Origin: an uncultured virus (IMG/VR IMGVR_UViG_3300032607_001050)
Lineage: Duplodnaviria; Heunggongvirae; Uroviricota; Caudoviricetes
Direction: 5' to 3' (one strand)
IMG/VR virus record: IMGVR_UViG_3300032607_001050
DNA length: 64,000 bases
Shown: piece by piece, positions 16,266 through 62,452 of the stretch
Layout of the letters: every line of letters starts with the position of its first letter
How positions within the stretch are numbered: the first letter of the stretch is position 1
Translations under genes and position numbers: made by a program
Notes under the pieces: model-generated
What the model was told of the DNA's origin: nothing
Seen by the model: the letters and a program-made list of their open reading frames with translations, nothing else
The model's database searches: none

Positions 16266-16577
16266 ATGATCGACGCAGTTTTGCTTTTTGGGCTGATCAA
16301 CATTGTCTTCGAGATGGTGTTGCTCAGCATGCTGCCGGTTAAGTTCCGGCTGAAGTTGCTTGGCACGCATCAATTGCAGCTCGTGCTGCATGTGCTGTTC
16401 CTCGTCGCCAACCTGCTGGTGCACTGGGGAACACTGGTGGGCACGATGTCCTCGATTCTTGCGTTCTGCGCATCAATCGTCTCCGTTCGCATCGCCCAGA
16501 TGCTGTTCGGAAAAATCGAGGGCGGGCGGTACTACACCGTCGGCCTCATTAAATACAAAGCCGAGGAGTTGACATGA
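16266..16577 (+). CDS. Membrane protein
   Basis: AGGAG RBS; about three hydrophobic segments. Confidence 0.75.
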   Translation: MIDAVLLFGLINIVFEMVLLSMLPVKFRLKLLGTHQLQLVLHVLFLVANLLVHWGTLVGTMSSILAFCASIVSVRIAQMLFGKIEGGRYYTVGLIKYKAEELT

Positions 16578-30364: not shown

Positions 30365-31072
30365 ATGACGCAACACATTGTCAGCTGGTCTTACTCCAAA
30401 CTTGGCGACTTTGAAAAGTGCAAGCTTTCAGCCAAGCTCAAGCACCTCGACCGCATCCCCGAGCCAGACCGCCCACTGCCGCCCGGTAAAACCGAGCATG
30501 CCAATGACCGCGGCTCGCGCATCCACGACAGCTGCGAGCATTTCGTTGATGGCACCGGCCCGTTCATCGCCGAGATGAAGGAGTTCGAGCAGGAGTTCAT
30601 TCACATGAAGCACCTGCACGCTGCCGGCCGGGTCTCGCTCGAAGGCGAGTGGGCACACGACAAGGACTGGAACATCGCCCCGTGGAAGACCGGCTGGCTG
30701 CGCCTGAAGCTCGACGCCATGGTCCACGCCTCTGAGACCGAGGCCGTTGTCATCGACTACAAGTCCGGCCGCAAGTTCGGCAACGAAGTCAAGCACGCCG
30801 AGCAGCTGCAGCTGTACCAGCTCAGCGCCTTCCTGCGCTTTCCTAACCTCGAAGTCGTTCACGCCGAGCTGTGGTACCTCGACGCCAAAGAGATCACCAG
30901 CAGCACCTTCACCCGCGACCAGGGCCTGCGCTTCAAACGCAGCTTTGACAGGCGCGGCACAGCGCTGACATCGGCTACCGACTTTCCCGCCAACCCCAAC
31001 GTGTTCAGCTGCAAGTGGTGCCCCTACGGCCCCGAAGGCACTGGGCACTGTGCGGTGGGTGTGAGGAAATGA
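30365..31072 (+). CDS. PD-(D/E)XK (Cas4/RecB-like) exonuclease
   Basis: SWSYS...C, LD...IDYKSG, QLQLY, CKWC...C; ATG 30365. Confidence 0.9.
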   Translation: MTQHIVSWSYSKLGDFEKCKLSAKLKHLDRIPEPDRPLPPGKTEHANDRGSRIHDSCEHFVDGTGPFIAEMKEFEQEFIHMKHLHAAGRVSLEGEWAHDKDWNIAPWKTGWLRLKLDAMVHASETEAVVIDYKSGRKFGNEVKHAEQLQLYQLSAFLRFPNLEVVHAELWYLDAKEITSSTFTRDQGLRFKRSFDRRGTALTSATDFPANPNVFSCKWCPYGPEGTGHCAVGVRK

Positions 31073-31275
31073 TCGACACGCCGCTACAGATTCTGGCTCG
31101 TCTGAAACAGATGAAAACCCAAGAGCTGGTCGGCGGTAGCGAAGTGCGCTTCCTGCGCCGAATTGGCCGAATTGGCTTTAACTACGACACGCGCAACCTG
31201 CCGTACCACAAGCAGGTCGACGCGCTGATCGAGATTTATACCCCTATGGCCATTGCAGAAAGACTGACTCAGTGA
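31069..31275 (+). CDS. Hypothetical protein
   Basis: GAGG RBS, ATGA overlap. Confidence 0.55.
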   Translation: MIDTPLQILARLKQMKTQELVGGSEVRFLRRIGRIGFNYDTRNLPYHKQVDALIEIYTPMAIAERLTQ

Positions 31276-32687
31276 CCCCCAAACCTATCAAGCCCTTCGC
31301 CCACCAGCTCGTCTCTATCAAACACAACGACAAGTCCAAGCTAGTGTTTGACCTCAGCGACGCTGGCACCGGCAAGACCTACGTGCGCATCGCCGGCTTT
31401 GCCAAGCGCCGCGCAGCCGGCGGCAAGTGCCTGCTGGTCATTGCCCCGCGCTCGCTCCTGCGCAGTGTCTGGTTCAACGACTTCCGCAAGTTCGCCCCGC
31501 ACCTCAAGGTTGTCATCGCCAACGCTGACAACCGCGAGAAAGCCTTTGCCGAAGACGCTGACGTCTACGTCACCAACACCGACGCCGCCAAATGGCTGGG
31601 CGCGCAGAAGAAACCTTTCTTTGCCCGCTTTGGCGAGCTGGCCATCGACGAGTCGACCGCCTTCAAGCACCACACCAGCCAGCGCAGCAAAGCCATGGTC
31701 AAAGTAGCCCGCCACTTTGAATACATCTGCTGCATGACCGCCACGCCCAACAGCAACACCATCTGCGACATCTGGCACCAGGCCATGCTGCTCGACGCCG
31801 GCAAACGCCTCGGCAACAGCTTCTTCAAGTTCCGCGACACCGTCTGTACCCCGGTGCAGGTCGGCCGCCAAGCCCAGATGGTCAAGTGGCACGACCGCGA
31901 AGGCGCTGAGGAAGCCGTGTTTGGCCTGCTGGGTGACATCGTCATCCGCCACAAGTTTGACGACTGCGTCGACATTCCGGCCAACCACCAGTACGCCGTC
32001 GACTACGACCTGACCGCCAAGCAGCTCAAGACCTATCTGGAGATGGAGCAGACCCAGATGCTGTCGCTCAGCAAGACCACCATGACGGCCGTCAACGCCG
32101 CCGCGGTGCGTACTAAGCTGCTGCAGATCGCCAGCGGCGCGGTCTACGACGGCCTCGGCGGCTTCCAGGTTGTTGACCGCGCTAGGTACGAGCTGGTGCT
32201 TGACCTTGTCGAGCAGCGCCAGCACAGCCTGGTGTTCTTCTTGTGGAAGCACCAGCGCGACCTGCTGATCGAAGAAGCCTGCAAGCGCGGCCTGACGTTC
32301 TGCGTGCTCGACGGCTCTACCACCGACCGCGAGCGCGACGAGATGGTCAAGGGCTATCAGGCCGGCGTGTTCCAGGTCATGTTCGCCCATCCCAAATCAG
32401 CTGCGCACGGTTTGACGCTGACCAAAGGCACGGCCACGATCTGGTCGTCGCCCACCGACGACCTGGAGATATTCGTGCAGGGCTCCAAGCGCCAGCACCG
32501 CATCGGCCAGACGCAAAAGACCGAGACCATCGTCGTCATTGCCAAGGGCACCTTCGACGAGAAAGTCTGGGACAACATGCTCAGCAAAGGCAAGCGCATG
32601 GACAACCTGCTGGACCTGTTCAGCAGCCTGACAACAGCAACTGCGCCAGTCGCGGCGCGTAAAAAGAAAGTGATGGAACCAGCATGA
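31272..32687 (+). CDS. SNF2-type SF2 helicase
   Basis: DAGTGKT, IDES, TATP, HGLTL, Q...R.HRIGQ. Confidence 0.9.
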   Translation: MTPKPIKPFAHQLVSIKHNDKSKLVFDLSDAGTGKTYVRIAGFAKRRAAGGKCLLVIAPRSLLRSVWFNDFRKFAPHLKVVIANADNREKAFAEDADVYVTNTDAAKWLGAQKKPFFARFGELAIDESTAFKHHTSQRSKAMVKVARHFEYICCMTATPNSNTICDIWHQAMLLDAGKRLGNSFFKFRDTVCTPVQVGRQAQMVKWHDREGAEEAVFGLLGDIVIRHKFDDCVDIPANHQYAVDYDLTAKQLKTYLEMEQTQMLSLSKTTMTAVNAAAVRTKLLQIASGAVYDGLGGFQVVDRARYELVLDLVEQRQHSLVFFLWKHQRDLLIEEACKRGLTFCVLDGSTTDRERDEMVKGYQAGVFQVMFAHPKSAAHGLTLTKGTATIWSSPTDDLEIFVQGSKRQHRIGQTQKTETIVVIAKGTFDEKVWDNMLSKGKRMDNLLDLFSSLTTATAPVAARKKKVMEPA

Positions 32688-32884
32688 AAATCAGTGAATG
32701 CCTATGCCCTGCGTCTCTTGACAGCGGAATCTTGACTCTCGAAGACGGCACCGCTATCGACCTGCAGCATATTTACGAACTGTTGGCCGAACTGCGCGAC
32801 TACGCGATAAGCGCCACGATGACGATGGAAGAAGAGCCCAGCTGTGTATTCGCGGCAAGTTTGATCCTGGATGAATTTCAGTGA
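32684..32884 (+). CDS. Hypothetical acidic protein
   Basis: Coupled overlaps on both sides. Confidence 0.55.
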   Translation: MKISECLCPASLDSGILTLEDGTAIDLQHIYELLAELRDYAISATMTMEEEPSCVFAASLILDEFQ

Positions 32885-34968
32885 CCTGGGCCTCCGCCAT
32901 CAAAAAACACGTTGCCCAGGCGTTCGCGCCTGCAGCGACGTTCACGCGGCCGGCTGTTCCGCAGCACACCGTTGACTGGGCACGCCTCGTGTCCCTGGAC
33001 TTCGAGACTTACTACGACGCCGACTTCACCCTCAAGAAGATGTCGACTTCTGAATACATCCGCGACAAGCGCTTCAAGTCCCAGATGCTGGGCATCAAGG
33101 TAGGCCATGGAAAAACACGAATCATCCCCGCCCGCAACATCAAAGCCGAGCTGGGCAAGATTAACTGGGCCACTCACGCAGTGCTTTGCCATAACACTCA
33201 GTTTGATGGTTTTATCCTTAGTCATCACTACGGAGTTCATCCTGTTTATTTATACGATACCCTCTCGATGGCCCGTGGCCTTCACTCTAACGATATTGGC
33301 GCTGGTCTTGACGATGTAAGCGTCTTCTACGGCGGCCACGGCAAGCTCGAAGGCCTCGAGGCCACCAAGGGCGTCGTCAACTGGCCCAAGGCTTTGTTCG
33401 ACGCCACGGCACCCTACTGCGCCAACGACGTCGACGAGATGCTGCGCGTCTTCAAGGCCATGCTGCCCAAGATGCCGGCCGACGAGATGGACCTCATCGA
33501 CCTTACCTGCCGCATGTTCTGCAGTCCGGTGCTGCGCGTCGACCTGCCCCGCGTCGAAGCCGAGCTCAAGCGCGAACTCGATCGCCGCGACGTGCTGATG
33601 GCCACCGTGATCAACCCGCGCCTGTACGACGACAAGACCACGCTCAAGAGCCTGGCCGAGCGCGCATTAACTGGCAAAGAGCGGGACACCCTGATCGTCA
33701 AGCGCGTCATCGGCAGCAACGACACGTTTGCCGAACTCTTGAGAGCCGAGGGCATCGAGCCGCCGATGAAGATTAGCCCGGCATGGATCAAAAAACCCAA
33801 AGACCTGCGCGACGAAGATGGCAAGTGGGCCTACGCCTTTGCCAAAGACGACGCCAAGTTCATCGGCTTGCCCAACAACGTCGAAGACTGGGGCTTTGAT
33901 CTCAACAACCCGGCCGATGTGGCGCTGATGACTGCCAAGCAGGACCGCATCCAGACCCTGGTCGATGTCCGCATCGCCACCAAGTCCACTACCAACGTCA
34001 CGCGGTCTCAGCGCTTTCTGACCGCTGGCGCCAACGGCATGGCCCTGCCCTGCGCCTACGCCTACTACCGCGCGCACACCGGGCGCTGGGGCGGCCAAAA
34101 CAAGATGAACATGCAGAACCTGACGCGCGGCGGCGAGCTGCGGCTGTCGATTCTGGCACCCAAAGGCCAAGTCATTGCGGTGCAGGACAGCGGGCAGATC
34201 GAAGCCCGGGTCAACGGCTGGCTCTGGGGCCAGCGCGACCTGCTCGATGCGTTCAGGGCTGCAGACGCCGGCACCGGCCGCGACGCCTACTGCAATTTTG
34301 GCGATCACATCTACGGCCGGGAAATCACCAAAGCCGACACGATGGAGCGCTTCGTCGGCAAGGTCTGCGTGCTCGGCCTCGGCTTCCAGATGGGCGCACC
34401 CAAGTTCCAGATGACGCTGGCCAAGGGCGCTCTCGGCGGCCCGCCGGTCTACTTCTCGTCCGACCGCTGCAAGGCCATTGTCAACACCTACCGGCTCAAG
34501 AACCATCGGATCGTTGCCGGCTGGGACATCTGCAAACGCATCATCGACGACATGGCCGCTGGCCGCACCGGCACCCACGGCCCGATCAACTGGGAGTTCG
34601 AGACCATCTGGCTGCCCAACGGCATGGCGCTCAAGTACCCCGACCTGCGCAAAGCCGTCGGCGAGCAGGGCTGGGACGAGTGGAGCTACCAGGCCAAAGA
34701 CCAGCGCAAGAAGATATACGGCGGCCTGCTGTGCGAGAACCTGGTGCAGGCGCTGGCCCGCATCATCGTCGCCGGCCAGAAGCTGGCGATCAGCCGCAAG
34801 TACCGCGTTGTCATGACCACGCACGACGAGGTGGTGGCGATCGCCAAGACCGCCCAAGCCGAAGCGTGCATCAAGTTCATGGCCAAAGCCATGAGCACCG
34901 CGCCTGCTTGGTGCGCCGACATTCCGCTCAACTGCGAAGGCGGCTACGCCGAGAACTACAGCAAATGA
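32881..34968 (+). CDS. polA: Family A DNA polymerase with 3'-5' exonuclease
   Basis: DFET, HNTQFD, YCAND exonuclease motifs; HTGRW, DSGQIEAR, RFVGKVCVLGLGF, THDE. Confidence 0.92.
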   Translation: MTWASAIKKHVAQAFAPAATFTRPAVPQHTVDWARLVSLDFETYYDADFTLKKMSTSEYIRDKRFKSQMLGIKVGHGKTRIIPARNIKAELGKINWATHAVLCHNTQFDGFILSHHYGVHPVYLYDTLSMARGLHSNDIGAGLDDVSVFYGGHGKLEGLEATKGVVNWPKALFDATAPYCANDVDEMLRVFKAMLPKMPADEMDLIDLTCRMFCSPVLRVDLPRVEAELKRELDRRDVLMATVINPRLYDDKTTLKSLAERALTGKERDTLIVKRVIGSNDTFAELLRAEGIEPPMKISPAWIKKPKDLRDEDGKWAYAFAKDDAKFIGLPNNVEDWGFDLNNPADVALMTAKQDRIQTLVDVRIATKSTTNVTRSQRFLTAGANGMALPCAYAYYRAHTGRWGGQNKMNMQNLTRGGELRLSILAPKGQVIAVQDSGQIEARVNGWLWGQRDLLDAFRAADAGTGRDAYCNFGDHIYGREITKADTMERFVGKVCVLGLGFQMGAPKFQMTLAKGALGGPPVYFSSDRCKAIVNTYRLKNHRIVAGWDICKRIIDDMAAGRTGTHGPINWEFETIWLPNGMALKYPDLRKAVGEQGWDEWSYQAKDQRKKIYGGLLCENLVQALARIIVAGQKLAISRKYRVVMTTHDEVVAIAKTAQAEACIKFMAKAMSTAPAWCADIPLNCEGGYAENYSK
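33107..33319 (+). CDS. Putative overprinted membrane protein in the +1 frame of polA
   Basis: ATG with AAGGTAGG upstream; two hydrophobic segments coinciding with a T-ending codon patch in polA. Confidence 0.45.
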   Translation: MEKHESSPPATSKPSWARLTGPLTQCFAITLSLMVLSLVITTEFILFIYTIPSRWPVAFTLTILALVLTM

Positions 34969-42740: not shown

Positions 42741-43000
42741 TGACTTTCATAAAAAAAACCCTGTCTGTGCCGGAAGCGAGTGACTTGATGAACGTCCATG
42801 CCAACACGGTGTTCAAAATGATCGACGCCGGAACTCTGCCAGCAGCCAAGATAGGCCGGGCCTATGTGTTGCTGTTGGACGACGTGATGAACTACATCGA
42901 GCAGATGGTCATCAAGCAGACCAGCGCGCGCATGATGGGCTCACCCATTCGCCCTAACGGCCGATCACCACATCTTCTGGGCAAGGTTAGAGCCGCGTAA
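42740..43000 (+). CDS. xis: Excisionase-like HTH protein
   Basis: LSVPEASDLMNVHANTV..MI..G.LPAAKIGR; adjacent to integrase. Confidence 0.8.
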   Translation: MTFIKKTLSVPEASDLMNVHANTVFKMIDAGTLPAAKIGRAYVLLLDDVMNYIEQMVIKQTSARMMGSPIRPNGRSPHLLGKVRAA

Positions 43001-44110
43001 ATTGGCGTACCTGAGCAGCACTTGGTGCGATTTGTGGCCGGTAATTTTCATGATCTCCGCGTCCGAAAAAGTCGTCCGTTCAAACAGGCGGCAGGTCGCC
43101 TCGTGGCGTAGATCATGAAAGTGCAAGCCCTTGCACTTTGCTGCTTGAAAGACGCCCGGGTCGCGTTTGTTGCAAAACAGTTTGGAGATTTCCGCACTGA
43201 GTACTTGCAAATACAAAGGCGTCATGGTGCCGTCCCACCAAGGAAACAGCGCGTTATCGTTGCCGCCTTTTGGCACAACACGTTGTTTCAAATACCCCGT
43301 AAGCACATCCACCGCCGGTGTGCTCAACGGGACCTGGCGCTTGTCGCCGTTTTTTGTCTTCTCTAAAAACACCGTGCGCTGCTTGAGCTTGACTTGATCG
43401 AGCGTCAGCGTGTACATCTCTTGTAGGCGCATCGCCGATTCAACCGCCAAAATCACCAGCACACGCGTGGCAGCCACATGCGGCAGCTTAAAAGGCCGCT
43501 GCTTTCTCGGCAACACGCCGCCGTCGATGACTGCCATGATTTTCTCAAACTCACCTTCTTCCAGGCGCCTGTCGCGCGAGACGTCTTCACGCGCGACGCC
43601 CGCCAAAGCGACGTCCTTGGAGCTGTACTGCGAGTAGCTGTCAGGCAATGACCTAAATGGGTTGTCAGGCATGACGAGCAATTCACGCCTGACACCCCAG
43701 TCAGTGCAGCGAGCAACAGCTCCGACTTTTGCGCGGATGGTGGCCGGTGCAAGCTTGTCGACGCGCTTCATCTCGTCGATCCACGCGTCTACCCAGGCGC
43801 AATTAAACGCTGTCAGGGGCGTCTTGCCCCAGCGCCCCAGCAGCGTGCCGACGGCCGCTTTGTCTTTTGGTGACGGGTGCGCGTTGCCCTCATATTCGCG
43901 CACCAGCCCTGCAAGGGTCATGACTCTGGTCTGAACCTGATAGTCAGGCGGGATGATGCCTTTGTCGAGCAGCGCTTCTAAACGACGGCAGTGGTCGATG
44001 CCTTCCTGCTCTTTGTCAAACGTCAGGTAAAGCGGTTTGGGCAGCAGCCCTGCACGCTTGACCGTGAACTGCCAGTTGCCCGTACTCTCGATGAATTTTT
44101 TGAATGCCAT
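42965..44110 (-). CDS. int: Tyrosine integrase
   Basis: AMRLQE, FHDLRHEA, TGHK....LRY catalytic residues; start taken at ATG 44110. Confidence 0.93.
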   Translation of the reverse strand: MAFKKFIESTGNWQFTVKRAGLLPKPLYLTFDKEQEGIDHCRRLEALLDKGIIPPDYQVQTRVMTLAGLVREYEGNAHPSPKDKAAVGTLLGRWGKTPLTAFNCAWVDAWIDEMKRVDKLAPATIRAKVGAVARCTDWGVRRELLVMPDNPFRSLPDSYSQYSSKDVALAGVAREDVSRDRRLEEGEFEKIMAVIDGGVLPRKQRPFKLPHVAATRVLVILAVESAMRLQEMYTLTLDQVKLKQRTVFLEKTKNGDKRQVPLSTPAVDVLTGYLKQRVVPKGGNDNALFPWWDGTMTPLYLQVLSAEISKLFCNKRDPGVFQAAKCKGLHFHDLRHEATCRLFERTTFSDAEIMKITGHKSHQVLLRYANLRGSNLAQKMW

Positions 44111-44250
44111 AGGCGGCAGATCATAGCCACAAAAACGCCTCCAACTAGGCGTTGCTCGGGTTGGTATGCGTGTTTTTTCGGGTGGTATACGGTGACTTAG
44201 AGTGATCTGGGGATGGCCCCGCGGACGAAAAAAAACCACCTAGATTTCTC

Positions 44251-44832: not shown

Positions 44833-45141
44833 ATGGAAGTCTTTCGCCGGCTGTCAATTGTTTGGGTAGTATGCGGGGTCGCCCTCGGCTTGGCGACGTT
44901 GAGCGTGGCCCGCTACCCTATCTTTTCGTTTGTTGTCATGGCACTGCTGGTCGGGCCTCTCTTTGTGTCGATCCGCTGGCCTAGCAAGCTGGTGCTGATC
45001 TGGTTCGGGCTCTGGCTCGCATTCGTGATCACGACAAAACTGAGCGGCTCAGACTTCGAAACCTTGCTGGTCATCGTTCCCGGCGGCGCCCTAGTTTTCT
45101 GGGTCGCCTGCTGGGTAGTGGCCGGACTGTTCAAGAAATAA
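44833..45141 (+). CDS. Four-TM membrane protein
   Basis: Hydrophobic throughout; AGGAG upstream (start 44827 or 44833). Confidence 0.7.
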   Translation: MEVFRRLSIVWVVCGVALGLATLSVARYPIFSFVVMALLVGPLFVSIRWPSKLVLIWFGLWLAFVITTKLSGSDFETLLVIVPGGALVFWVACWVVAGLFKK

Positions 45142-45429: not shown

Positions 45430-45567
45430 ATGTTTGCTTTTCTTTTCGCTGCAGCCAAGCTGCTGCGTGTCGTACTCGTCGTGCTGCGTGCAGCTGCGGG
45501 TATCCTGATCGTTGGCCACGGCACCTACCGCTGGGTCAAGAACAAGCGCCAGGACATGCTCGCCTGA
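45430..45567 (+). CDS. Small hydrophobic peptide (45 aa)
   Basis: MFAFLFAAAKLLRVVLVVLRAAAGILIVGHGTYRWVKNKRQDMLA; GGAGG RBS. Confidence 0.55.
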   Translation: MFAFLFAAAKLLRVVLVVLRAAAGILIVGHGTYRWVKNKRQDMLA

Positions 45568-54464: not shown

Positions 54465-56567
54465 TTAGTTACTAGGGCGCAGGCGGGCGCCGTTGTTTTT
54501 CATCATTTCGAGTTCGTTCTGGCCGACGTTTGCACGCGGGATGTACTGGGTGCGCCCGTCTTTGGTCACGGCGTAGTCACCGCGGCCGATCTTGGGGCGG
54601 ACAAGCCCCTCGAAGAAACCGACCTCACTGACGTCCGCCCCGTCGAAGTCCGGCAGGGTGGACGACTCAGGACTGTCTTTGCCCAGGCCGACGTAGTTCA
54701 GGTATCCGGGGTCGCGCAGCCTGTTGGCGCCATCAGTGACCTTGTAGGCCGAGAGCACCTTCTGCCACACAGAGTTTTGACCGGCCTCGTCCATCTGGTC
54801 GAAGCCGGGGGCGATGGAATTCGTCAGAGCGCGGACCTGTTGCAGACGCGCTGGGTCTATCTTGTCGTCGACGATGGCCAGGGACTCGAGGCGGCGGGTA
54901 GCGTTCTCGCTGGACTTAAAGCCACGCGCCTGTTCGGCGGTTTTCTCGGCGTTAGCGGCGTCGCTGCGCCCGGCTTCGAAGGTGCGGTCGGCAATGAACC
55001 GGTCTTGCTGGGTCTTCATCGCGGAAGCTCGGGCGGTGCGGTCGGCGACTTCGTTTGTGCGCTCGGCGGTGAGCAGGTCAGTGGCATTTTTCTGAGTTGC
55101 TGCAAACTCGCGCTGCAGCGTGTCGCGCCGGTCCATCAGCATCTTCCTCTCATTGAGGCTGGCCGTGCCGGCAATCTGCCGGTCGATGCCGCTGGTGTCC
55201 AACGTGCGGCCGGCAAGCTCCCGGCGCTCGACCTTCTCCTGGCGATCCTGCTCGGTCTGTGCGTAGCCGGCCTGCAGGTTTCGCTCGGCACCATCGCGCA
55301 GTGAGCGCTCTCTGTAAGCCGCGCTCTGTGTGTACGGCGTTGAGTTGCCGGGCGCGGCGGGCGCGGCGGCATTTGCGGCAGATGGGTTACCGCGCAGGTT
55401 GGAGAAGTCGCGCACGCCGTCGGTAGTGAGCTGGGTGATGCTGCCGAAGCCCTTGCTGGCGGAGAACTTGTTAAAGACGGCGTCGTCGTCGGTGTATGGG
55501 TCGCGCAGCGCAGCTGGTTTTGCAGAGGCTGCGACAGCTTGTGCGTCACCCGGTGCCAAAGCGTCCGGCCGCCGCCCTGTACCGGCGGCCATGCCGCCAG
55601 CCACTGCGGTAGCGGTGTTGGCCATGCGGGACGCGCCGCTGCCTGCGCGCAACAGACCGCCGACAGCGCCTGTGAGCGGGCCTGTTGCATTGAGTGCGTT
55701 ACCGACATTACGACCCACCTCAGTGTCAGTAAAGGCGTTATAGGGCAGCGCCGCTGGTGCGGGGGCATAACCGTCGGTCGGGATGGCGTTGACGTTGGCG
55801 CGGTTCTCGACGCTAGTGCCTGGCGGGCCGCCATTGCCGACCTTGGACAGTACGTCGGCCGCTGCGTAACCGGCTGCGCCAGCGAAGCCGTTCTTCACCA
55901 GGTCTTTGACCATGGGCATGGCGGATTGGCGCAGGGAGGTGGCGGCCGCAGCTGGAGGAACAGACGGAGGAACAGACGGAGTGCCCACGCCCGTCTGGAA
56001 CGGCCCAGTGCGCCCGGCTTGGTAGACGCGCGCTTCAGCGGAGCCGCCGGGGCCGACATTTGGGTTGCCGCCGCGCATACGGGCGTCTGTCGCACCGGAC
56101 GTGTCGAAGCGCCCAGCTGCTGGGCCTTCGCCCAGCACGTCGCCAGCACCCGGCATAGTGAAGCCCGAGCGCGTCGCCACCGCGTTGGCGGGCGTGCCAC
56201 CAATACGCACGCGGTCAGGAAACTCTGGCACATCGCTGGGCATGGTGAAGCCCGAGCGCGTGGCCAACGCTCCACCGTCCGCCATGCGCAGAGTCTTGCC
56301 CCGCTGCTCAGCCACCGGCGTGTGCGTGGCGTCCTTGATGGCGTCGAGCTTGTCGTAGCCGATCATTTCGGCGGTGTCTGCCGGCAGCACGTACTCGCCG
56401 TTGGCGTACTCAGCCTTGACGGTATCCACCGTGCCGTCGCCAGCGCCTTCGACGCGGCCGCCGCGCAGGCTGCCCTTTTGGTAGACGCCGTCGGCCCAGC
56501 GCTTCATGCCGCCGTCGGCCATGCGCAGGGTCATCTTTTTCTCGGGGTAGCTGCGCATGGAGTTCAT
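54465..56567 (-). CDS. Putative internal virion/ejection protein
   Basis: LRMADGG repeats, G.GDGT.D...NGEYVLPAD motif, Ala/Gly-rich; precedes the giant gene. Confidence 0.65.
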   Translation of the reverse strand: MNSMRSYPEKKMTLRMADGGMKRWADGVYQKGSLRGGRVEGAGDGTVDTVKAEYANGEYVLPADTAEMIGYDKLDAIKDATHTPVAEQRGKTLRMADGGALATRSGFTMPSDVPEFPDRVRIGGTPANAVATRSGFTMPGAGDVLGEGPAAGRFDTSGATDARMRGGNPNVGPGGSAEARVYQAGRTGPFQTGVGTPSVPPSVPPAAAATSLRQSAMPMVKDLVKNGFAGAAGYAAADVLSKVGNGGPPGTSVENRANVNAIPTDGYAPAPAALPYNAFTDTEVGRNVGNALNATGPLTGAVGGLLRAGSGASRMANTATAVAGGMAAGTGRRPDALAPGDAQAVAASAKPAALRDPYTDDDAVFNKFSASKGFGSITQLTTDGVRDFSNLRGNPSAANAAAPAAPGNSTPYTQSAAYRERSLRDGAERNLQAGYAQTEQDRQEKVERRELAGRTLDTSGIDRQIAGTASLNERKMLMDRRDTLQREFAATQKNATDLLTAERTNEVADRTARASAMKTQQDRFIADRTFEAGRSDAANAEKTAEQARGFKSSENATRRLESLAIVDDKIDPARLQQVRALTNSIAPGFDQMDEAGQNSVWQKVLSAYKVTDGANRLRDPGYLNYVGLGKDSPESSTLPDFDGADVSEVGFFEGLVRPKIGRGDYAVTKDGRTQYIPRANVGQNELEMMKNNGARLRPSN

Positions 56568-61116: not shown

Positions 61117-61341
61117 TTAATTTGCCAGCGCGGCAGACCGGCAATCCCGGTACTGGTTCGCTGTCTCCACTAGCTTGACTACCGTAGCACCAAAGCTGTC
61201 ATCAAGGAGTGGCGACAGCTCTGGGCAACTTGAAACCACCAACGGTGTCGGCTGACTGGCCGGTGAGCGCGGCGTTGATGCGAGACAGCCCGCCAGCAGT
61301 GTTGACGCAATCACGATAGACAGGGTTGTTTTCAACTTCAC
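61117..61341 (-). CDS. o-spanin (Rz1-like lipoprotein)
   Basis: Signal peptide with LLAGC lipobox, Pro-rich, overlaps the i-spanin; start estimated at GTG 61341. Confidence 0.75.
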   Translation of the reverse strand: MKLKTTLSIVIASTLLAGCLASTPRSPASQPTPLVVSSCPELSPLLDDSFGATVVKLVETANQYRDCRSAALAN

Positions 61342-61561
61342 GGCGTACCTCTTGGACGATGGTGGTGTTCTTGGGTCGATTCCCGGCAATGGCTTTGGCA
61401 GCACCTTGCTGAGCTGCCTCTCTGGTTTCACGAACAATGGCGTCGGCCTTGGCATTGAAAGCAACTACGCTGTCTGCGCCCGAGTTGTAGGAGAAGTAAG
61501 ACGCACTGCCTACGGAGGCTAGCCACCCTGCGGCGATGACGGACAGCAGGTAGGGGTTCAT
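61202..61561 (-). CDS. i-spanin (Rz-like)
   Basis: N-terminal TM, periplasmic helix, VYRDC; follows the endolysin. Confidence 0.75.
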   Translation of the reverse strand: MNPYLLSVIAAGWLASVGSASYFSYNSGADSVVAFNAKADAIVRETREAAQQGAAKAIAGNRPKNTTIVQEVRREVENNPVYRDCVNTAGGLSRINAALTGQSADTVGGFKLPRAVATP

Positions 61562-61574
61562 TGATGGATCCAGT

Positions 61575-62102
61575 TCACGCCAACACCTCTGTGGCTACCG
61601 CGTACCGTGCTTGCCTGTCGGCCAGCCCGTTTATGCCGCCGTTGATTCGTTTCGTTGCTTTGAGGAAGTCACCTGCGTCGGCAATCTCATTAAGCCCGTG
61701 CTTCTTCCACCACCAGGCTGCGCTCAGGGCTGCATAACCTGGCTTTCCGAGTAACTCGGGGGTAGATATGAAGTCGATGCCCAAGGCATCAGACAGCTCT
61801 TGGTAGTTATGCCGTCCAGTGATCTGGATCAAACCCCGACCACGGAAACGAGCGCCGTCACCTGTTTTGTTATTGCCCAAGTCAGCCCTGCCTTCGTAGC
61901 GCGACTGAGCTGGAGTTGGCCCCCAGATCTCTACGGCGTACTTGAAGCCGCCACTTTCATGGCCTACTTGTGCCAGGAACATGGCTTGTCTTGCTGAAGT
62001 ATTTATGTCGTACTCCAGCATGGACGCCTCGATGTACGGATGCCATTCCTCAGCACGGTCGATCCGAGCACCAGAAGCCAGAGCTAGTTGCTTTGGGGTC
62101 AT
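61575..62102 (-). CDS. Endolysin, glycoside hydrolase family 19
   Basis: FLAQVGHES, LGN...GDG.RFRGRGLIQITG..NY, TKRINGG.NGL.DR. Confidence 0.93.
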   Translation of the reverse strand: MTPKQLALASGARIDRAEEWHPYIEASMLEYDINTSARQAMFLAQVGHESGGFKYAVEIWGPTPAQSRYEGRADLGNNKTGDGARFRGRGLIQITGRHNYQELSDALGIDFISTPELLGKPGYAALSAAWWWKKHGLNEIADAGDFLKATKRINGGINGLADRQARYAVATEVLA

Positions 62103-62452
62103 ACGGGCGGCCAGCCGTCCATGATGGGCATAACAAGCCCTGGCTGTTGGTGAATAAAGGACTCGAGCTGGTAAATACGGCGGCGATACAGCGCCAGTTC
62201 CGCGGCCTGCTCCTGCTTTAACGTCAGCAACTCTGCGGCCCGCTCCTGCTTAAGCGACAGCAGTTCTGCTCGGAGGCTGGAGATTTCCTGTTGCAGTCTC
62301 GAGTTGAGCTCGTCTCTGGCCTCGGATTCACGCAACGCCGAAGCAGTGTCCTTGGCATCCAGATGAGCCAGCAACCACTTACCACCCCCACCGATTACCA
62401 GCAGGAAGCTGCCCAGCGAACCTATAAGTAAGGTGAGTGATTCGGCGCTCAT
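62099..62452 (-). CDS. Holin/antiholin-like protein (1 TM + coiled coil)
   Basis: N-terminal TM; directly upstream of the endolysin. Confidence 0.55.
   Translation of the reverse strand: MSAESLTLLIGSLGSFLLVIGGGGKWLLAHLDAKDTASALRESEARDELNSRLQQEISSLRAELLSLKQERAAELLTLKQEQAAELALYRRRIYQLESFIHQQPGLVMPIMDGWPPV

Follow-up and report, generated by a model that had tools for sequence, protein, structure and literature searches.

A small membrane protein very probably encoded in the +1 frame of the DNA polymerase gene of a freshwater phage and of many related phages

In phage phiX174, the lysis gene E is nested in gene D, where third-position T of the older frame becomes second-position T of the +1 frame and a transmembrane (TM) helix is read; third positions are T-rich in that genome generally (PMC8227390). 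In ssRNA phages, the genes for single-gene lysis proteins (Sgl) sit inside rep and are read in its +1 frame (PMC7693330). They encode small TM proteins, have their own Shine-Dalgarno (SD) sequence and start in the polymerase gene, are poorly conserved and have been gained and lost repeatedly; they lie mostly in poorly conserved parts of the replicase and are the sole lysis gene (PMC7693330). In phage lambda, Rz1 in Rz is an overprinted envelope gene of a tailed dsDNA phage, often missed by gene callers (PMC6139136). T4 Imm and HK97 gp15 are small inner-membrane proteins for superinfection exclusion, encoded by free-standing genes (10.64898/2026.03.06.709160). The KPP25-like PolA subfamily corresponds to cluster 12 and comes from phages and prophages of Proteobacteria (PMC10201439); the word 'overlapping' is absent from the main text of that paper. 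No ORF nested in a phage polA was described among the papers listed by searches of a collection that lacks most subscription papers.

The window analyzed here is a 64,000-nucleotide DNA stretch of an uncultured freshwater phage (IMG/VR record IMGVR_UViG_3300032607_001050), and its features are listed in Table 1. The +1 ORF of its polA gene shares its geometry with E in D, the sgl genes and Rz1 and differs from each of them in defining features. As in phiX174 E and Sgl, a small nested protein with a predicted TM helix is encoded, and as in Sgl it has its own SD sequence and start, low conservation and a history of repeated gain and loss; however, this phage has an endolysin, unlike one that lacks a muralytic enzyme and relies on a single lysis gene. 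In contrast to Sgl, the ORF lies on a conserved catalytic motif of the DNA polymerase of a dsDNA phage that has a full lysis cassette. In contrast to phiX174, the patch of T is built locally on a GC-rich background, and no sequence likeness of the +1 protein to E was found. Unlike Rz1, the ORF has no lipobox at its start and no i-spanin host; its starts vary among relatives, no lipobox is conserved and the host gene encodes a replication enzyme. T4 Imm and HK97 gp15 are functional analogues for the tentative exclusion role discussed below, although no homology of either to the +1 protein was found. The host polymerase is of the cluster 12 type, while KPP25 and R18 have no patch and a +1 stop at +7.

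Table 1. Features of the polA locus and of the lysis cassette in the window.
Feature	Position	Strand	Basis or remark
SNF2-type helicase gene and 66-aa ORF adjoining the pol start	31272..32884	+	pol strand
Family A DNA polymerase gene (polA), KPP25-like, 695 aa	32881..34968	+	Pfam PF00476 and PF01612; phrog_17
SD-like AAGGTAGG, made of pol codons AAG GTA GGC	33097..33104	+	duplex -4.6 kcal/mol
Overprinted +1 ORF, 70 aa, predicted small membrane protein	ATG 33107 .. TAA 33319	+	frame, starts, stop avoidance
A-rich codons right after the ATG (pol GGA AAA ACA)	33110..33118	+	
Patch of third-position T in polA, coding for the predicted hydrophobic core of the +1 protein	33181..33318	+	
Predicted TM helix 1	33182..33259	+	best-scoring window, residues 26-46; hydrophobic as far as residue 51
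Pol Leu-Ser codon pair	33217..33222	+	CTG with AGY here gives +1 TGA
Second hydrophobic segment, residues 55-70, marginal TM	33269..33316	+	stays open, T-rich
Late lysis cassette: phrog_2658 (holin-like), phrog_181 (endolysin), i-spanin-like ORF and overlapped lipobox ORF	61117..62452	-	spanin assignment read from sequence

The sequence-only reading, made from the window before any comparison, had reported a T-specific patch with 25 of 46 pol codons ending in T and three in A. The counts were reproduced (T25, C14, G4, A3), and T-ending codons outside the +1 ORF numbered 42 of 624 in the same gene. When synonymous codons were drawn from the rest of polA, the mean was 3.9 T and the maximum 12 in 20,000 draws; when the whole gene was shuffled, the best 46-codon window reached 17 in 5,000 shuffles. 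Among 13,244 such windows in the genes of this genome, the patch ranked first for third-position T (z 9.1; next 5.4). The +1 frame read as that account had written it from the ATG to the TAA, and the pol codons CAT GGA AAA ACA CGA at the start and AAGGTAGG upstream were present. AlphaFold2 modeled the +1 protein as a single long helix of residues 20-69 (pTM 0.38), which was uninformative. One virus record was identical to the window over 32700-33450, and contigs of two of four runs of one study, one run being possibly the source, covered the whole ORF without differences; an assembly slip as the origin of the ORF was rejected on the identical record and the matching contigs of other runs. Near-identical A-rich 16-mers (14/16) occur at 32896-32911, after the pol GTG, and at 33104-33119, after the +1 ATG.

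Over its exonuclease part, the window polymerase was 37-38% identical to those of KPP25 and R18, both Pseudomonas phages. The overlap with the +1 ORF spans the CHNTQFD motif of the 3'-5' exonuclease domain, which we take to be Exo II. Relatives were found in genome records labeled Herminiimonas, Janthinobacterium and Verminephrobacter.

Four scans gave 205 loci, to which the window was added; the 164 sequences with 54% identity or more and sufficient flanking codons were reduced to 118 non-redundant homologs at 95%. The 42 loci dropped were shorter or more distant, and the distant ones were analyzed separately. The patch was scored as z against the codon usage of each gene. It was bimodal, with 37 homologs at z of at least 3.5 (carriers), 79 below 2.5 (non-carriers) and two between, the cut-off of 3.5 having been set after the values were seen. 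A +1 frame that is connected to an ATG and stays open for 42 codons or more beyond the motif histidine was found in 37/37 carriers vs. 8/79 non-carriers. In thinned sets the figures were 29/29 vs. 4/51, and below 75% identity 20/20 vs. 3/39. The eight non-carriers with ATG and open frame (e.g., L008, L107 and L175) had neither patch nor hydrophobicity and are read as decaying or incipient; L093 (z 2.5) had no ATG in the usual range. Because the compared sequences are related and recombining, the p-values given below overstate independence.

Counts of +1 stops pointed to selection on the frame. With columns permuted among carriers and T content fixed, 0 stops were seen vs. 13.1 expected, and the minimum in 20,000 permutations was 5; in non-carriers the same test gave 72 stops vs. 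82 expected. At the Leu-Ser pair in Table 1, the 37 carriers had no stop vs. 5.7 expected, while 39/79 non-carriers had one. The two Leu-Ser pairs were written in carriers as CTG with TCN or as CTT/CTC with AGY, never as the pair that makes TGA. In the second segment, stops at offsets 24, 35 and 39 were avoided in 37/37 carriers. The +2, -1 and -2 frames were closed in all 37, and the in-register antisense frame was open in 15. These comparisons show that the +1 frame is under selection to stay open.

Each carrier also has a start. The ATG lies outside the scored patch, at -28 (14 carriers), -20 (6) or -5 (19); 35 carriers have exactly one site, two have two and none has none, whereas 9.4 carriers without any site would be expected if the sites were independent (0 of 100,000 permutations). 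The expectation of a conserved +1 ATG thus held in that every carrier has one and failed in that there are three alternative sites. SD pairing was stronger where a site is in use (p 2e-6 to 2e-3), and each site has an SD sequence of its own, drawn from pol codons that are rare or shifted: GTA ahead of -28 (9/12 carriers starting at -28 alone), AGG before -20 (5/6) and TGG AGC before -5 (9/19). GTA was not among the four commonest codons at that place in the 19 carriers with a -5 start or in the 79 non-carriers. Third-position A after the ATG averaged 1.83 of 3 in carriers starting at -28 vs. 0.37 in those starting at -5 (p 7e-5). Upstream +1 stops occurred only where the start site allows them, in 0/18 users of an upstream start vs. 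5/19 carriers starting at -5. The stop itself was placed less strictly; that it falls exactly at the end of the patch is true of the window and of just 7/37 carriers, the others running on to a stop that lies +46 to +102 codons beyond the CHN histidine.

What is conserved in the predicted product is its bulk hydrophobicity. By approximate insertion energies, TM helix 1 was below 1.5 in 33/37 carriers vs. 1/79 non-carriers, and the second segment in 9/37 carriers. Of the one or two TM segments proposed earlier, the first is therefore solid and the second is found in a minority. The +1 proteins of carriers had 26-50% identity to that of the window, their shortest forms had 47 aa and no soluble domain, and their one invariant Trp is dictated by a pol Met. 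Hydrophobicity of the +1 frame is thus conserved as anticipated, while exact residues vary. Suppressed synonymous variation in the pol frame, a usual mark of an overprinted gene that had also been predicted, was not found, although the open frame and the own start with a ribosome-binding site were; synonymous divergence was higher in the patch (0.545) than outside it (0.448; 345 pairs, middle bin). Selection acts on the open frame, the start and bulk hydrophobicity and not on exact residues.

The polymerase differed as well. Pol residues that have no T-ending codon numbered 0.05 in carriers vs. 1.10 in non-carriers at offsets 12-24, with a control stretch unchanged; lysines of the polymerase were replaced in the patch of carriers; and Asp stood for Glu at pol +34 in 32/37 carriers vs. 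15/79 non-carriers. The near-loss of residues without a T-ending codon and the Asp at +34 indicate that the enzyme itself has been bent by evolution to accommodate the +1 ORF.

It is very unlikely that no protein is made and that the patch instead reflects a nucleic-acid element (an unwinding site at an origin, a U-rich RNA signal or a local C-to-T hotspot) or an imported tract. The synonymous sites are indeed not frozen, and the exonuclease block is swapped by recombination. However, at four-fold sites only T rose in the patch (0.49 vs. 0.15 outside), while A was not raised (0.07 vs. 0.11) and G fell (0.20 vs. 0.31), and first-position T of Leu, silent in both frames, was flat (0.109 vs. 0.101). 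No stable fold was predicted (z 0.74; 3/37 below -2), short repeats occurred in two copies at most, Rfam gave no match at threshold, and no sigma-70-like promoter was found in 30500-33800 of the window. Stop avoidance, complementary ATGs and matching SD codons would be left unexplained. Import from an AT-rich phage was rejected; the nearest patch DNA was 80% identical and came from GC-rich phages. In the close group, none of the homologs with the patch (0/37) had lost the start or the +1 frame. Neither of the two contrary patterns named by the sequence-only reading thus occurred there, and the hidden gene that it proposed is supported. With high confidence, we regard the ORF as a real gene for a membrane protein that overprints polA in the +1 frame.

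Searched against Pfam, PHROGs and NCBIfam, the +1 proteins of the 37 carriers gave only weak hydrophobic matches (best E 0.007, 0.012 and 0.003). The window protein matched no holin or antiholin family, and one of the 37 matched a Pfam holin family at E 0.007, a generic hydrophobic match. The best PDB sequence match had E 0.45, the ESM Atlas gave no usable match, and a word-indexed search at near lengths gave 0 of 768 candidates. A profile search of 1.84 billion representatives gave nine matches, all of which mapped to this pol segment as read in the +1 frame, and no free-standing homolog.

A blind search for nested ORFs with ATG, SD sequence, TM helix and third-position T in 29 genomes or contigs gave 15 matches, of which 11 were the polA +1 ORF. 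It was found in 11/13 carriers and in 0/15 non-carrier pol genes, and was the sole match in the window. A plain scan for third-position T also found lipobox-bearing +1 ORFs in i-spanin-like genes. Such ORFs inside i-spanin genes are a known overprinted class; the i-spanin-like ORF of the window (61117-61561, minus strand), whose protein had no PHROGs match, is overlapped by an ORF with the lipobox LAGC. Other nested +1 ORFs with a single TM helix, a strong SD sequence and an excess of third-position T were seen at L297:13029 and L302:547 (both plus strand; z 6.3 and 4.5) in two relatives, inside the gene of the variable virion protein that lies just upstream of the giant gene. The very GC-rich sister phages L044 and L197 have a second strong patch at pol offsets of about +228, where the +1 frame has no TM helix; it is probably an imported tract.

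As to how the gene would work, ribosomes would start within the pol mRNA at the internal SD sequence and ATG; because translation would start inside this mRNA, the protein would be made alongside the helicase and the polymerase during replication, as its position suggests. Third-position T of pol would supply the middle T of +1 codons for Phe, Leu, Ile, Met or Val, and a core of about 45 residues could for that reason insert into the host inner membrane as one TM helix with a weaker second segment. The N- and C-tails would be variable and dispensable. The ORF would be an accessory gene that is gained, lost and swapped together with the exonuclease block.

An E-like lysis role, as suggested by the sequence-only reading, is unlikely because carriers have ordinary late lysis cassettes of their own with unrelated holins; the E-like geometry itself stands. 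Endolysins were found in the window and in carriers G003, G004 and G005, and the holins were phrog_1356 (G004), phrog_3427 (G005) and phrog_2658 (window), of which phrog_1356 also occurs in non-carriers G031, G034 and G036. Given the endolysins, the unrelated holins and one holin family common to non-carriers, the ORF is no missing holin and is unlikely to encode a holin-specific antiholin. A replacement-holin role was rejected on a scan of 77 of 236 cluster representatives. That the gene tunes lysis, as an early antiholin or a holin accelerator, is improbable. The product would be a small membrane protein with basic tails, and +1 embedding is frequent for lysis genes (PMC6139136, PMC7693330). 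Against this stand the unrelated holins, the sharing of phrog_1356 with non-carriers, a position 28 kb from the cassette on the opposite strand and neither in nor beside it, the lack of profile likeness to the holin-like protein of the window, and the presence of two starts in just 2/37 carriers.

Inhibition of a host envelope or division enzyme, or membrane toxicity in host takeover, as in phiX174 E or Sgl, was judged unlikely to about the same degree. The geometry and codon mechanism are those of E in D (PMC8227390), and of 33 active sgls, 21 use the +1 frame of the replicase gene and have little sequence in common (PMC7693330). However, this phage has a lysis cassette of several genes, a lethal lysis while replication is under way would presumably lower the burst, weak residue conservation fits a specific enzyme inhibitor badly, and 178 of 293 TM candidates had no effect (PMC7693330).

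The early position, the separate lysis cassettes, the unrelated holins, the state changes and the block swap described below argue for a host-interaction role outside lysis. Counter-defence, aimed at an abortive-infection effector in the membrane, or a role in anchoring the replication machinery to the membrane would suit production with replication genes, and the patchy, swapped distribution suits a host arms race. These readings are quite improbable: even the shortest forms leave no soluble domain, a codon alignment inspected by eye showed no conserved slippery site fusing the ORF to pol, and, being absent from 79/118 homologs, the ORF is not a core replication part.

Superinfection exclusion by a replication-phase inner-membrane accessory is tentatively ranked first among the functions, as a matter of judgement. 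Like T4 Imm, the protein might plug or bind the membrane channel that a second incoming phage uses. It is predicted to be a small inner-membrane protein, as exclusion proteins are, and no homology to a known exclusion family was found. Neither a family match nor a co-occurring gene pointed to exclusion specifically; among 8 vs. 14 near-complete genomes, no gene tracked the presence of the ORF convincingly (best p 0.011, uncorrected).

On a tree of the downstream polymerase (FastTree, 105 rows; 13 short rows omitted), the ORF underwent at least 10 state changes. Carrier L011 and non-carrier L017 were about 68% alike up to roughly codon +105 and identical from there on, which may be a block swap or a chimeric assembly. 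Compensation in non-carriers was rejected: no substitute TM ORF was found elsewhere in the pol of the 79, and free-standing small TM ORFs lay in the flanks of three alone. A separate AT-rich group of homologs, with about 40% identity, keeps the same +1 frame, with 17 stops vs. 137 expected (36 sequences, 80 loci). An ATG was present in 34/36, mostly with AGGAG or AGGA at -42/-44, and third-position A was depleted; the other two, L383 and L386, are T-rich, yet have a stop at +21 and no connected ATG. On a quick tree of 57 chosen rows, non-carrier lineages, including KPP25 and R18, separated the GC-rich carriers from the AT-rich ones; the ORF may therefore have one ancient origin followed by many losses, or repeated origins.

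It is conceivable, though doubtful, that Exo II of KPP25-like polymerases is a recurring birthplace of a membrane microprotein, with more than one origin at the same catalytic site, new starts and SD sequences drawn from synonymous codons, forced changes in the proofreading domain, mobility as an exonuclease block and a class of replication-coupled exclusion or counter-defence proteins as the outcome. If so, an unrecognized class would be hidden inside essential enzymes. The 37 carriers, 79 non-carriers, intermediates and three start sites form a natural on/off series in which gene birth, movement and loss can be followed around the active site of an essential enzyme, where the host polymerase bears visible costs. 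Suppressed synonymous variation, the usual test for overlapping genes, would miss a selected gene of this kind, in which hydrophobicity alone matters, and the finding suggests that phage replication operons hold membrane proteins that are not annotated. The ORF is testable because carrier L164 is a prophage inside a sequenced Herminiimonas genome.

Other small membrane-protein ORFs were seen in the window. A 103-aa ORF with three TM segments lies at 16266-16577 (plus strand), and comparable small early membrane proteins occur near the primase in many relatives. A 102-aa ORF with four TM segments (44833-45141, plus strand) and a 45-aa ORF with one (45430-45567, plus strand) lie antisense between the integrase and a giant virion gene and are moron- or exclusion-like. 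The tyrosine integrase (phrog_1; 42965-44239, minus strand) had no blastp match at E 1e-4 in 28 related contigs, and two relatives have a different integrase-like gene. A 700-aa virion gene (54465-56567, minus strand) between two conserved genes falls into many different clusters across relatives; its product is a candidate membrane-crossing ejection protein and a possible target if the +1 ORF acts in exclusion.
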